From Escherichia virus TH43, in the sequence record MT446414.1: a stretch of 64,000 nucleotides of DNA, one strand, 5' to 3'. Positions 33,283 to 45,554 of this stretch are shown here, in pieces. Made by a program: the position numbers and the translations under genes. Below the pieces are notes generated by a model. That model ran no database searches. It was given only the letters and a program-made list of their open reading frames with translations, and had not been told where the DNA came from. Numbering within the stretch: position 1 is the first letter of the stretch; every line of letters starts with the position of its first letter.

Positions 33283-34410
33283 CTAACCCATAAAGGCGTA
33301 TTCATCTAAAGGCCCACCCATGTATGAACCCATGTACGCTGATGTAAAGGGGACTCTATAAAGGCATACCCATAAAGGCCATGTCACATTAAGGCCACCT
33401 CATACCCATGAGCATGTCTCCACTCTACTTCATAATCCTCTTCGGTGAAGCTACCGTAGTCTTCTTCAGTCATGTTAAGGCCTATCCACCCATTTACTAT
33501 TCCTCACCTTACCACAGTCTGCACATCTCCATGTACTCTTGTAATAAGCGTGTAATCGTTCATCACCTCTTGATATCCGGATTGGATAGTACTCGTGATT
33601 ACATTTGAATTGCTTAACTAGTAACTTAATCTTCCACATAAAGTTGTTCCTCACTCTTAAATCCACAACTAACGTTGGGGCATATAGTTATATATAAGGG
33701 TTTTAAATTCTGATTTGACCGAGTGGACCTAGCCCCTCCGAGCGCGTTTCCTAAAAAGGGGGAGTCCTCATTTAAAAAAGGGTTATTACCAATGCAATTG
33801 CCTTTAGGAAATCAATCAGCCTTTAAGCTCTAAGCCTTGCCCTACCTGCTATCAGTGGCATGCCTACCCATAAATACCCTACCCATTAATATAAGCCATC
33901 TATTTAATACCCATGTATATCTAACCAGTGATTTCCTACCCGTATTTCTCTTACTCATATTGAGAAGGGATGAAAGGCTAGACTCTGATGCACTGTTAAG
34001 GGGTTATAATAAGAGGGCTAATAGTAAGGGCTATTATAGTAAGGTTAGTGATGGTAACACCATGCAATTATATCAATCCTCACACTACCCCACGTTTAAT
34101 AGTAATAACCTATGTTAATGTTTCATGAGTGGATTATTGATGTATGTATCATTAGACTGGAAGTAATAACTTTCTTTTATTATTCTCTTTTAATCTTTTC
34201 TTTTTCAGCGTGCTGTTGGTCTTTTTCTTTTGTTGTTTGAGTAAATTATTTGACTGGTAATTAACTCCCGCATGGTCTGGTCTGTCATCTGTAACTAACT
34301 TACATTATACCCTACCCGTTTCCCCTTCCTCGTTAGGCTTCTTACCCATTGGCTAACCTATGCGGCACGTTCTACCCATCTGTCGTTGCCGTTGGTCTGC
34401 TACCCGTTCT
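33283..34410. repeat. array of about 13 short ACCC[AG]T-core motifs in the divergent control region
   Basis: Repeated CTACCCAT / CTACCCGT / ACCCATAAAGG copies around 33285, 33316, 33329, 33368, 33404, 33867, 33880, 33910, 33938, 34312, 34343, 34374, 34401. Confidence 0.6.
33475..33666 (-). CDS. small Cys-rich (zinc-ribbon-like) protein
   Basis: CNHEY ... CADCGK spacing suggests a zinc ribbon. Confidence 0.3.
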   Translation of the reverse strand: MDLRVRNNFMWKIKLLVKQFKCNHEYYPIRISRGDERLHAYYKSTWRCADCGKVRNSKWVDRP

Positions 34411-42943: not shown

Positions 42944-42949
42944 ATAAGA

Positions 42950-42980
42950 GGCTGCCCTTCGGGGTGGCCTTTGTTGTTTT
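42950..42980 (+). terminator. intrinsic terminator
   Basis: GGCTGCCC ttcg GGGTGGCC followed by TTTGTTGTTTT. Confidence 0.55.
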
Positions 42981-43023
42981 AATTAAGGGGCAACTCTTAC
43001 TTAAACTAACAAGAGAGGTTGGT

Positions 43024-43233
43024 ATGAACATTCGTTTAGTTCGTAAACAAGATGGCAGACAGGTTGTGCTAGGTGAGATTGTTTGTGCTGCACACAACCT
43101 ACTCCCTGAAAAAGATGAAACTATCTGGTTTGATGGAGAACAGCGCCGAGTATTATCGGTTGTTAAATCCTTTGAGCCAAAACGCAACAATGAAAAAGCT
43201 CTTACCTGTTGGTTTGAGGTTGACATTACATAA
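43024..43233 (+). CDS. hypothetical protein, 69 aa
   Basis: ATG with GAGG upstream; track ORF 42934 trimmed. Confidence 0.45.
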   Translation: MNIRLVRKQDGRQVVLGEIVCAAHNLLPEKDETIWFDGEQRRVLSVVKSFEPKRNNEKALTCWFEVDIT

Positions 43234-43242
43234 GGGGTTGAT

Positions 43243-43494
43243 GTGTTCAATCGTTTATTTGACCGTAAAGGTCGCACTGACATACTGATACCTTCTATCG
43301 GTGTGCCAGCTAAGTTCGGTGAGATACGTGCTGGTGACTTCTTCATGGAATCAGGTCGTCTTCATCTGAAGATCAACCTCGATCACGCTGTTGAAATCCT
43401 CAGTGATGATAAGCCAATCATCGGCACTTCGGTGTACAGTGCAAACCATACTGTATTTGTTGTCAATGTTCAGATTGAGATTAAATCACCATGA
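43243..43494 (+). CDS. small protein, PGDVF-motif family member 3 (divergent)
   Basis: GEIRAGDFFME motif; GTG start with AAGGGG upstream. Confidence 0.45.
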   Translation: MFNRLFDRKGRTDILIPSIGVPAKFGEIRAGDFFMESGRLHLKINLDHAVEILSDDKPIIGTSVYSANHTVFVVNVQIEIKSP

Positions 43495-43748
43495 AGACAA
43501 ACTTCCGAGCAGCAGTTATTACGAAAGTAATAGCAGTTGGCGATGTAATGATGCAGGTTCCTCTGAACACTCGTTACATTGCCATTGACCGAATGGGTTA
43601 TGTGTGGGCTTGGAAGTGGAAGCCTACTTATAACGAACTGTTCGACGAATACCAGTGCGCTGGACCTTACATGCCAACCTTAATCGGTGTGTATGAAGAT
43701 GGTCCTTGTCGTACTCCTCAGTTAATCGAACTACCGGCGTGTGCTTAA
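43491..43748 (+). CDS. hypothetical protein, 85 aa
   Basis: ATGA overlap with upstream gene. Confidence 0.45.
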   Translation: MKTNFRAAVITKVIAVGDVMMQVPLNTRYIAIDRMGYVWAWKWKPTYNELFDEYQCAGPYMPTLIGVYEDGPCRTPQLIELPACA

Positions 43749-43749
43749 T

Positions 43750-43911
43750 ATGATTAAGTGGCTAAAGCGTGTCTTCCATTGTCATGATTGGAAGATTATT
43801 AACACCCGTCCTCTGGTCTATACAGATTCAGATGGGAACAATGACAAGGGCACACGTTACGTTATTCAGTGTAAGGTGTGTGGTGATGTTAGTCATCGTG
43901 ATGTAATCTAA
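43750..43911 (+). CDS. small zinc-ribbon-like protein, paralog 1 (53 aa)
   Basis: MIKWLKRVFHCHDW ... CKVCGD; below track cutoff. Confidence 0.45.
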   Translation: MIKWLKRVFHCHDWKIINTRPLVYTDSDGNNDKGTRYVIQCKVCGDVSHRDVI

Positions 43912-43920
43912 GGAATCATT

Positions 43921-44085
43921 ATGATTAAATGGTTCAAACGTCTATTTCATTTCCATGAGTGGGAAGATCTTTCTACTTATGAACTGACGATCACAAATAA
44001 ACTTACTGACAGAGAGCGACAAGGGTTGCGTATCTACTCTCGCTGTAAAGTGTGTGGTCTGCACAAGAAAACAGACCTGATTTAA
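43921..44085 (+). CDS. small zinc-ribbon-like protein, paralog 2 (54 aa)
   Basis: MIKWFKRLFHFHEW ... CKVCGL; AAGGA upstream. Confidence 0.45.
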   Translation: MIKWFKRLFHFHEWEDLSTYELTITNKLTDRERQGLRIYSRCKVCGLHKKTDLI

Positions 44086-44093
44086 GGGGTGTT

Positions 44094-44303
44094 ATGTTCT
44101 TTCGTAAGAAAAAGCCCGAAGATTCTGGATGTAAACACGAGTGGGTGATCACTGAAAACCTTCAAATCACTCACGCTAAAGACACTCCAGTCGAGAGAAA
44201 AGAGTCTCGTGTATCTCGTATCTGTAAACGCTGTTTGAAAATAGAACAGCATAAAGTTCCCGGTCATATCGGTCACGATGTGGCCTTGCGTATCTTCAGT
44301 TAA
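44094..44303 (+). CDS. small zinc-ribbon-like protein, paralog 3 (69 aa)
   Basis: CKHEW ... CKRC; AAGGGG upstream; track start 44052 trimmed. Confidence 0.45.
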   Translation: MFFRKKKPEDSGCKHEWVITENLQITHAKDTPVERKESRVSRICKRCLKIEQHKVPGHIGHDVALRIFS

Positions 44304-44337
44304 ACAAACTCAGCATCCTTAGCTCAATGGAGGGGTT

Positions 44338-44760
44338 TTGAAGATAGAGTTAGAATACCCCTTCGTTAATGACTGGCGATTGGGCTACTTAAGAACAAGC
44401 AGAGACGGTAGGAAGCGTGTTGATTTGTATAATACCGACACGGAGAGGACAACCATTTCTTACGCAAGATATTTAATGTCTTGTCACATAGGCAGGTACC
44501 TAACTGAAGACGAGGAGGTTGATCATATTGACAGAAATAAAACTAATGATGACATATCTAATCTTCAGATACTTTCCATAGAAAATCACAGAAAGAAGTC
44601 AACATTAGAAGCAACTACTGGAAGAACAATGATTTCAGTTGTTTGCTCTTATTGTGGAAGATCTTTTGAAAAAGAAAAGCGAAATGTTAAATATGCAAAT
44701 TCTTTTTGTAACAGATCATGTGCAGGTAAGTATAACGGTTTCAAATCTATCGGGGCGTAG
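44338..44760 (+). CDS. HNH homing endonuclease
   Basis: EVDHIDRNKTNDDISNLQILSIENHRKK is a classic HNH core, plus C-terminal CxxC ... C...C; TTG start with GGAGGGG upstream. Confidence 0.65.
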   Translation: MKIELEYPFVNDWRLGYLRTSRDGRKRVDLYNTDTERTTISYARYLMSCHIGRYLTEDEEVDHIDRNKTNDDISNLQILSIENHRKKSTLEATTGRTMISVVCSYCGRSFEKEKRNVKYANSFCNRSCAGKYNGFKSIGA

Positions 44761-44826
44761 TCTAGTGGAACAGGCAGCGAGCTTCTAACTCGCCTTACGA
44801 GGGTTCGAATCCTTCCGTCCCGACCA
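44751..44826 (+). tRNA. tRNA-Arg (anticodon UCU)
   Basis: Manual cloverleaf: acceptor CGGGGCG/CGTCCCG, D-arm GTCT-AGTGGAAC-AGGC, anticodon arm GCGAG-CTTCTAA-CTCGC, T-arm GAGGG-TTCGAAT-CCTTC, discriminator A, encoded CCA; 76 nt. Confidence 0.8.
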
Positions 44827-44837
44827 ATTTTAAACAA

Positions 44838-44952
44838 GGGCTAGTATGGGTACGGCACCAGAGTTAGTGTATCCCTGTTGAGGCAAGTGCTTTTATAACA
44901 GTGGGAATTGCTTTCTTAGTGAGCTTCTGGTTCGATTCCAGATAGTCCACCA
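44838..44952 (+). ncRNA. tRNA-like element of aberrant length (about 115 nt)
   Basis: Canonical T-arm TCTGG-TTCGATT-CCAGA and CCA end; acceptor pairing GGGCTA/TAGTCC only if the 5' end is at 44838; internal hairpin 44872-44906; no standard cloverleaf found by hand. Confidence 0.35.
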
Positions 44953-44971
44953 AATCAAATAGGAGGTGCTT

Positions 44972-45298
44972 ATGAGTTGGGGTGGTGTAATTACCTTAAC
45001 CTGTATCTTTATCGCCTGTGTAGCTCTTACAGGCTGCGTACAGCATCGTCCTGATGGATGGTGTGCATTATCGGTAGAAGGTGTCTGTGTTTCCCGTTGG
45101 CATAGCGGGGAGAAGATTCCTAGTGGTGAAATTGATATGCGTTATGCTGGTGCTTCTTGTTCCAATGGCGGTGCTGTTGACGAGAAGGCTTATGCAAAGC
45201 GTGATATGGCTACCCAAGGTGATTGGTCACGTTATGACTTCATCTCCCGTGGTGAGCTGTGTGGTGGCTCTGTGACAACAACAGGTAAGGAGTGGTGA
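44972..45298 (+). CDS. putative lipoprotein (Cys-rich)
   Basis: Signal peptide ending in lipobox-like LTGC; AGGAGGT upstream of ATG 44972. Confidence 0.5.
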   Translation: MSWGGVITLTCIFIACVALTGCVQHRPDGWCALSVEGVCVSRWHSGEKIPSGEIDMRYAGASCSNGGAVDEKAYAKRDMATQGDWSRYDFISRGELCGGSVTTTGKEW

Positions 45299-45299
45299 T

Positions 45300-45554
45300 A
45301 TGTCCGGTCATTATTCTGATACGAAAGCTCTACTTGAAACAGCGGCTCAAACTTCATGCCAACAGCAAGTAAAAATGCTGTTGGTTGATATCCGTAATCT
45401 TCGTTGGCTTATTAAAGAAGGTCATCTCGGTAACGCTGCCTATTACAACGTTAAAGATATCCTTCGCCGCCAGCACTTTCTTATCCACGGAAACGTGGTA
45501 ACTCGCAACTATCAATGGAACGGTGAATGGTTACAGCAGCGTATGTCCTCCTGA
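45300..45554 (+). CDS. hypothetical protein, 84 aa
   Basis: ATG two nt after the upstream stop. Confidence 0.4.
   Translation: MSGHYSDTKALLETAAQTSCQQQVKMLLVDIRNLRWLIKEGHLGNAAYYNVKDILRRQHFLIHGNVVTRNYQWNGEWLQQRMSS

Follow-up and report, generated by a model that had tools for sequence, protein, structure and literature searches.

Three very small open reading frames (ORFs), here called P1, P2 and P3, lie in tandem in Escherichia virus TH43 (sequence record MT446414.1), directly upstream of an HNH endonuclease gene and a tRNA-Arg gene. We analyzed 64,000 nucleotides of this record, referred to throughout as the window. Our results point to P1, P2 and P3 as genuine genes for diverged paralogs with a predicted zinc-ribbon-like fold, and they suggest that the adjoining HNH gene arrived independently. 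The three ORFs are:

43750-43911, plus strand: P1, 53 amino acids, 'type A' allele, motifs HCHDW...CKVCG; matches PHROG 8294 (E 2.5e-24)
43921-44085, plus strand: P2, 54 amino acids, 'type B' allele, motifs HFHEW...CKVCG; matches PHROG 8294 (E 1.2e-17)
44094-44303, plus strand: P3, 69 amino acids, divergent, motifs CKHEW...CKRCL; matches PHROG 13426 (E 3.1e-37)

All three were confirmed in the window at the positions given in a preliminary description of this DNA, and P1 and P2 are, as it remarked, shorter than 60 amino acids. Both of these cover the PHROG 8294 profile from end to end (positions 1-56 of 56); PHROG 8294 and PHROG 13426 are each of unknown function. A megablast search with positions 43000-45500 found matches in 64 phage records at 80-96% identity, all of them Escherichia or Shigella podophages of the phiEco32 group (Gordonclarkvirinae; Suseptimavirus/Kuravirus), and by this measure the window phage is itself a phiEco32-like podophage of the Gordonclarkvirinae. 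The array sits within a long rightward block of small ORFs. Regions homologous to this block in SU10 and phiEco32 hold early genes with sigma-70 promoters (PMC4281155; PMC9965538), and because the corresponding block has been assigned to the early genes in those phages, we class P1-P3 as early. A strong terminator-like hairpin, with 11 pairs followed by a T-run, is present at 42947-42972 in the gap preceding the gene at about 43024, and the transcription unit holding the array and the tRNA may begin there.

Paralogy and purifying selection

P1 and P2 are clearly recognizable as paralogs by BLASTP, which aligns them at 41% identity with an E value of 6e-14. The likeness spans their full length and is not confined to a shared N-terminal peptide. 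At the DNA level the two genes are about 54% identical, and the only stretches that stand out are the first 43 nt (77%) and the CKVCG codons (93%). A DNA-level tandem repeat or a recent gene conversion could be ruled out as the source of the resemblance, given the many DNA differences that spare the shared protein motifs. The duplication is old, and the likeness of the pair has been maintained by selection at the protein level.

Orthologs of the three ORFs were taken from eleven relatives and compared by Nei-Gojobori statistics, pooled per type. The pooled ratio of nonsynonymous to synonymous differences (pN/pS) is 0.11 for the P1 type (A; orthologs in seven phages compared), 0.28 for the P2 type (B) and 0.10 for P3, and it is 0.27 for a third type, C, found in phiEco32. 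Since these ratios are low (0.10-0.28) at a synonymous divergence (dS) within types of up to 0.3-0.5, with many synonymous differences, the reading frames of P1, P2 and P3 are under purifying selection. Signals for translation are also present. P2 is preceded by the Shine-Dalgarno sequence AAGGA, 8 nt upstream, and P3 by AAGGGG at normal spacing. The ATG of P1 lies 1 nt past the stop of the upstream ORF at 43491-43748, which suggests that P1 is translationally coupled to that ORF.

On this sequence evidence we take P1, P2 and P3 to be real genes. The ORFs are very short and belong to no Pfam family, as might be expected if they went unexpressed and owed their similarity to chance ORFs or to a DNA-level repeat. 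Such an explanation is nevertheless extremely improbable in view of the low pN/pS amid so many synonymous differences, the conservation of protein motifs between P1 and P2 at so modest a DNA identity, the ribosome-binding sites, and the existence of 262 homologous protein clusters of the same length and motif. Orthologs in about 90 related phage records carry the GenBank label 'hypothetical protein' (e.g., phi32_107 of phiEco32 and gp105 of SU10), and a literature search found no study of the P1-P3 genes.

A predicted zinc-ribbon-like fold

The breadth of the family became apparent when an HMMER profile was run in full against 1.84 billion representatives and retrieved 262 clusters at E<=1e-3; a word-indexed protein search found only 13. 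Nearly all of the best 150 of these 262 clusters are standalone proteins of 47-80 amino acids, and PHROG 8294 is matched by 106 of 107 aligned family members. Every sequence of the 107-sequence alignment has H12 and C45, and W14, C42 and G46 are conserved almost throughout. Among 106 diverse members, 85% have His and 14% have Cys at position 10, position 12 is His in 100%, positions 42 and 45 are Cys in 99% and 100%, respectively, and G46 is kept in 95%, giving the family signature [H/C]-x-H-x-W...C-x-x-C-G. Interchange of His and Cys at position 10, together with three invariant His/Cys positions, reads as a classic metal-site signature. The same 106 members are predominantly basic, with a median isoelectric point (pI) of 9.2, a median net charge of +4 and a pI above 8 in 87%. 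Conservation elsewhere extends to the N-terminal helix, Trp14, Gly35, Arg37/Tyr38 and the basic C-terminus. Variation is greatest in the hairpin between strands 1 and 2, where insertions and deletions also occur. We envisage the protein as a scaffold in which the helix, W14, G35, R37/Y38 and the basic C-terminus would be constrained and the 1-2 hairpin would be free to vary.

An AlphaFold2 model of P2, computed from a 13-sequence alignment, has a predicted local distance difference test score (pLDDT) of 78.5 and comprises a helix at residues 3-8 and strands at 14-26, 31-42 and 48-53. H10 and H12 are placed at the junction of the helix and strand 1, and C42 and C45 in the turn that links strand 2 to strand 3. 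The model of P3 is of low confidence (pLDDT 59) and shows the same three strands plus a C-terminal helix. We propose that each protein folds around a single Zn2+ held by [His/Cys]10, His12, Cys42 and Cys45, the last two belonging to a CxxCG knuckle, and that the first ligand pair would sit where a short, amphipathic N-terminal helix meets strand 1. A single structural zinc and a zinc-ribbon-like fold are thus predicted for the P1-P3 family.

The preliminary description had called the three proteins zinc-ribbon-like, and this view gains from the metal-ligand signature and from the predicted three-stranded sheet with its CxxC in a hairpin turn. Its alternative suggestion of a treble clef does not agree with the P2 model, in which the last two ligands occupy a hairpin turn followed by a strand, with no helix after them. 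With classical zinc ribbons (the N-terminal domain of NrdR, TFIIB/TFIIS, ribosomal zinc ribbons) the family would share one metal site made of four conserved ligands in two sequence-distant pairs, and the P2 model shares with them the three-stranded antiparallel sheet and a hairpin turn whose CxxCG knuckle supplies the second pair; NrdR is among the weak fold matches of this model. We nonetheless write 'zinc-ribbon-like' rather than assigning a canonical zinc ribbon, because H10 and H12 lie off the beta-hairpin knuckle in the P2 model. No significant structural or sequence likeness to an established zinc-ribbon protein or Pfam model was found. Pfam scans of P1-P3, of the 107 family members and of eight divergent members gave nothing above cut-off, and the sub-threshold matches were to zinc-ribbon or zinc-finger families only. 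A structure search of BFVD placed the EP335 ortholog on top, and the lower matches were small uncharacterized proteins of Bacillus, Pseudomonas, Salmonella, Acinetobacter, crAss-like and Streptomyces phages.

Searching the family profile against PDB sequences found no relative. The only match there was to ubonodin (6por_A), an RNA-polymerase-inhibiting lasso peptide, whose HIHDWQIMDSG aligned with HvHeWeiieeg at family profile positions 6-23; at an E value of 0.11 this is probably a chance hit, and we rejected it. A scan of 185,579 bacterial and archaeal species genomes with the N-terminal pattern likewise revealed no relative, and so gave no evidence of a prophage or cellular reservoir. Scans of IMG/VR returned kuravirus-like contigs and one match limited to the N-terminus. 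Among cultured phages outside the kuraviruses, a family member was found in only two, Pseudomonas phage ventosus and Synechococcus phage S-SRM01.

The position of P3 within this family deserves separate consideration. According to the preliminary description all three proteins share an H.H[DE]W block and a CK[VR]CG block; this is true of P1 and P2, but P3 reads C-K-H-E-W and C-K-R-C-L, and the pattern common to the three is [H/C]-x-H-[DE]-W...C-K-x-C. P3 additionally has a basic N-terminus and a C-terminal H-x-VPGH-I...helix segment. BLASTP relates it to P2 with an E value of 4e-4 and to P1 with 5e-3, and a family hidden Markov model (HMM) built without P3 retrieves it at E 1e-5 from among 960 window ORFs. 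A word-indexed protein search with P3 returned near-identical sequences only, and tblastn matches were used in its place: the P3-family profile combines five sequences from outside the kuraviruses (from Vequintavirinae) with five kuravirus P3 sequences. Aligned by hhalign with the P1/P2-family profile, it gives an E value of 9.7e-5 over a region that spans the first to the second ligand pair. Within these ten sequences C-x-H is kept (as C-x-x-H in one of the ten) and C-x-x-C is always present; the Gly after CxxC is replaced by Leu, and a conserved segment, H-x-V-x-G-H-I, has been added. P3 is probably a divergent paralog of P1 and P2.

P3 of the kuravirus type was found in 47 records. Relatives of P3 outside the kuraviruses occur in 27 records, from phages of Escherichia, Cronobacter, Pectobacterium, Enterobacter, Salmonella and other hosts, and the five of these that were read are all Vequintavirinae, large myophages unrelated to the kuraviruses. 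Between the two groups the PHROG 13426 proteins are about 40-47% identical (e.g., Escherichia phage A7_1, L025 2492-2728, and loci L026-L029). They have in common a conserved C-terminal H-x-V-x-G-H-I...F-G-G, a segment that P1 and P2 do not have.

A further, more distant member of the family is encoded elsewhere in the window:

33475-33639, minus strand: fourth distant paralog (putative), 54 amino acids, FKCNHEY...WRCADCGKV; retrieved by the family HMM at E 1.6e-3 (960 window ORFs)

This protein matches PHROG 7696 (E 1e-11), to which 21 of the 107 family members also match, and hhalign relates it to the family with an E value of 2e-4. It is conserved in 92 phage records. In phiEco32 the leftmost gene, a predicted early gene (PMC4281155), is its ortholog.

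P1-P3 and the fourth paralog do not differ in kind from PHROG 8294, 13426 and 7696; they belong to these same families. To this our analysis adds a ligand signature and a predicted fold; it also connects the three PHROGs and describes a variable array. This contribution is modest, amounting to a better description of a catalogued family of hypothetical proteins. If confirmed, it would define by a signature ([H/C]xHxW...CxxCG) a group of widespread phage mini-proteins that currently have neither a Pfam entry nor a solved structure, delimit their family and propose how they fold, and it would join three PHROGs in one superfamily. Among other phage-encoded zinc proteins, Com of Mu, Ogr of P2 and Delta of P4 contain about 60-70 amino acids and a single zinc bound by four Cys ligands; Com acts by binding RNA, and Ogr by binding RNA polymerase/DNA. 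The proteins described here resemble them in size and differ in ligand pattern, and searches with the array proteins and the family turned up no sequence similarity to them. We mention them as an analogy only.

Array variation and possible functions

A tblastn search with P2 located a family member in 90 phage records and a second member in 29 of them (119 places). The 90 records come from coliphages and Shigella phages alone, and those for which the taxonomy was read are without exception phiEco32-like (Gordonclarkvirinae). In the loci read, the position of the array is fixed, always just upstream of tRNA-Arg, and its composition takes four forms:

Type C alone: phiEco32, SU10, VTCCBPA_211
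Type A and P3: NJ01, O18-011, KM01
Types A and B and P3: window, 101114UKE3, Bas91, MLP3, ECBP2
Types C and B and P3: PAS59

Alleles alternate in the first slot (A or C), whole genes are present or absent at the other slots, and the array differs in this way although its flanks are 92-96% identical. The cassette had been described as locally expanding. Copy number does range from one to three genes between phages, but the copies are old, as their low DNA identity attests, and what is seen from phage to phage resembles entire gene cassettes being gained, lost and swapped more than it does a continuing duplication. Type B itself falls into two allele groups that differ mainly in the hairpin, which reads TITNKLTDRER in one and KVTHRLAGGER in the other (pN/pS between groups, 0.24-0.45). 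A tandem pair of family members also occurs at 3817-4174 of L018, an unrelated, phage-like metagenome contig of 102 kb; tandem duplication of a family gene has therefore happened more than once. Since several of the near-identical coliphages that carry one to three of these genes are in the BASEL collection, the array offers a natural experiment on the roles of early mini-proteins.

Nine family members in metagenome contigs were sampled for their context. All nine lie within runs of small overlapping phage genes, and their recognizable neighbors belong mostly to replication and nucleotide metabolism (DnaB, DNA and RNA ligases, 5'-3' exonuclease, dCMP deaminase, nucleoside deoxyribosyltransferase). 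The other neighbors in the sample are an HNH gene, which a member adjoins in L019, and a split DNA polymerase A gene. In the latter case, seen at L007 3431-5876 and L022 561-3037, DNA polymerase A (family A) is split at the same position of the Pfam model, with an N-terminal fragment that ends at about 133 and a C-terminal fragment that starts at 154. The gap contains two or three small ORFs, the last of which is the family member, and the start codon of the C-terminal fragment follows directly on the stop of this member. L007 and L022 are probably one phage lineage, so the split polymerase counts as a single case.

We propose that P1-P3 are small, basic binding modules at work in early infection. 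The interpretation as a whole, in which real, co-transcribed early genes encode old, diverged paralogs that are zinc-ribbon-like mini-proteins and serve as early binding modules, with the HNH gene independent of them, is the one we hold, with moderate confidence. Regarding the ligand, the charge (pI 9.2), the zinc-knuckle chemistry and the replication-type neighbors make us lean, tentatively, toward nucleic acid or the machinery of replication or transcription. The preliminary description had suggested nucleic-acid-binding regulators; the basic charge would agree with both the binding and the regulatory role, although it does not demonstrate a function. A host protein, bound in the course of takeover or counter-defense, is nearly as likely a target; allele exchange, presence/absence variation and recurrent duplication would point in this direction.

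Several considerations weigh against the interpretation we hold. Its functional part draws on charge, size, timing and neighbors, and early phage proteins with many different functions often have a basic pI and a replication neighborhood. The link between P3 and the other two proteins consists of E values of 1e-4 to 1e-5, adjacency and motif order, and it might alternatively reflect convergence between two small zinc-binding folds. The ortholog is not mentioned in the proteomics supplements for SU10. In addition, allele exchange and presence/absence variation would fit a role in an arms race at least as well. Sequence and profile searches found no homology between the family and a known nucleic-acid binder.

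Such an arms-race role would make the array a diversified host-takeover or counter-defense locus, in which the zinc scaffold presents a variable hairpin that blocks differing host proteins. A defense system, RNA polymerase, gyrase or a division protein would be candidate targets, and alleles could be swapped by host. The location of the genes, in the early region amid dozens of small accessory ORFs, is what one might expect of such a locus, as are the alternation of A and C in one slot and the presence or absence of B and P3 despite flanks that are more than 90% identical. The concentration of variability, insertions and deletions in the strand 1-2 hairpin, where the type B allele groups chiefly differ, points the same way, as do the independent tandem pair in L018 and the sharing of P3 relatives with phages outside the kuraviruses, including Vequintavirinae. 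Selection within each allele type is clearly purifying, however, and the presence of at least one copy in 90 of 90 records is more core-like than accessory. No likeness to a known anti-defense protein was found among the PHROG matches, all of which are of 'unknown function', the PADLOC library not having been scanned. On balance we regard a diversified counter-defense locus as rather unlikely and retain the early binding modules as our working interpretation.

An HNH cassette in the tRNA-Arg gene

Immediately beyond P3, where the preliminary description had correctly noted an HNH gene and a tRNA, the window contains the following features:

44313-44331, plus strand: tRNA-Arg stump (GCATCCTTAGCTCAATGGA), the first 19 nt of the resident gene, from comparison with L001, L011, L012 and L015
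44338-44760, plus strand: predicted HNH homing-endonuclease gene (PF13392, E 2.4e-6; PHROG 14913, E 4e-55)
44751-44826, plus strand: replacement tRNA-Arg(TCT) gene (ARAGORN; Rfam RF00005, 52.9 bits), overlapping the HNH stop codon by 10 nt

The HNH gene begins with TTG and is preceded by the Shine-Dalgarno sequence GGAGGGG. In HNH-less relatives, tRNA-Arg(TCT) starts 8-9 nt past the P3 stop, and the resident allele reads GCACCCTTAGCTCAATGGACAGAGCAG...; homology of the window to these phages resumes at 44838, which delimits a cassette of 506 bp at 44332-44837. The 3' three-quarters of the resident gene for tRNA-Arg(TCT) has given way to the cassette, which brings its own tRNA, complete and divergent in sequence. 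In O18-011 the retained part of the resident tRNA measures 27 nt, compared with 19 nt in the window. The HNH gene (at >=74% identity) and the new tRNA allele are found in exactly the same eight records, which represent six phages.

The adjacency of the array and the HNH gene had been read as a meaningful link within one cassette. The small-gene family is present in 90 records and HNH occurs at this site in only eight, and on its left side the cassette begins past the P3 stop, within the former tRNA gene, so neither the link nor the inclusion of the array in the cassette can be upheld. By all indications the HNH gene is an independent, homing-type cassette, which inserted itself into the tRNA gene and is functionally unconnected with the array. 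The arrangement suggests a homing endonuclease whose target is the phage tRNA gene and which brings along a resistant substitute. T4 SegB and the T5 HNH enzymes are free-standing homing endonucleases in phage tRNA regions. The cassette is similar to them in that an HNH gene interrupts or adjoins a tRNA gene and is scattered among close relatives, and it differs in that it destroys the resident tRNA-Arg and brings a complete, divergent tRNA-Arg(TCT). With a misleading association removed, replacement of a tRNA by the allele of a cassette is arguably of greater biological interest here.

The small genes could still be imagined as a functional part of the HNH/tRNA mobile element, for example as a subunit for DNA-binding specificity or immunity. 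P3 is directly followed by the HNH gene in the window, a family member also adjoins an HNH gene in metagenome contig L019, and the two contigs with a split DNA polymerase A gene have their member at the same place within it, a typical site for homing elements, and in one of these contigs (L007) HNH genes also lie at a distance of about 2 kb. Phages carry HNH genes so often, however, that an occasional adjacency is to be expected, and the cassette boundaries leave the small genes out. Moreover, HNH always goes together with its own tRNA allele and is tied to no allele of the array, and the family occurs in all 90 records in contrast to the eight with HNH. For the window, a partnership with HNH is largely refuted by these comparisons, and we consider it highly improbable. 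A broader version would make the family a minimal DNA-binding partner of intervening or homing sequences, acting as a targeting, immunity or repair-assisting factor or as a helper in trans of the split polymerase. The occurrence of members at the gap of the split polymerase, upstream of HNH genes and beside the tRNA-Arg hot spot would speak for it, and we deem it very improbable.

The junction of P3 and the tRNA gene is a hot spot for insertion, because either the HNH cassette or another ORF has been inserted there in different phages. In ECBP2 (L004 4400-4710) and NJ01 (L005 4376-4686), an ORF of about 100 codons occupies the junction instead of HNH, and its N-terminus resembles a signal peptide (MKQKHFIISTLLLMTTIGIISVNSAE...). 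NJ01 also carries a third, different tRNA-Arg allele.

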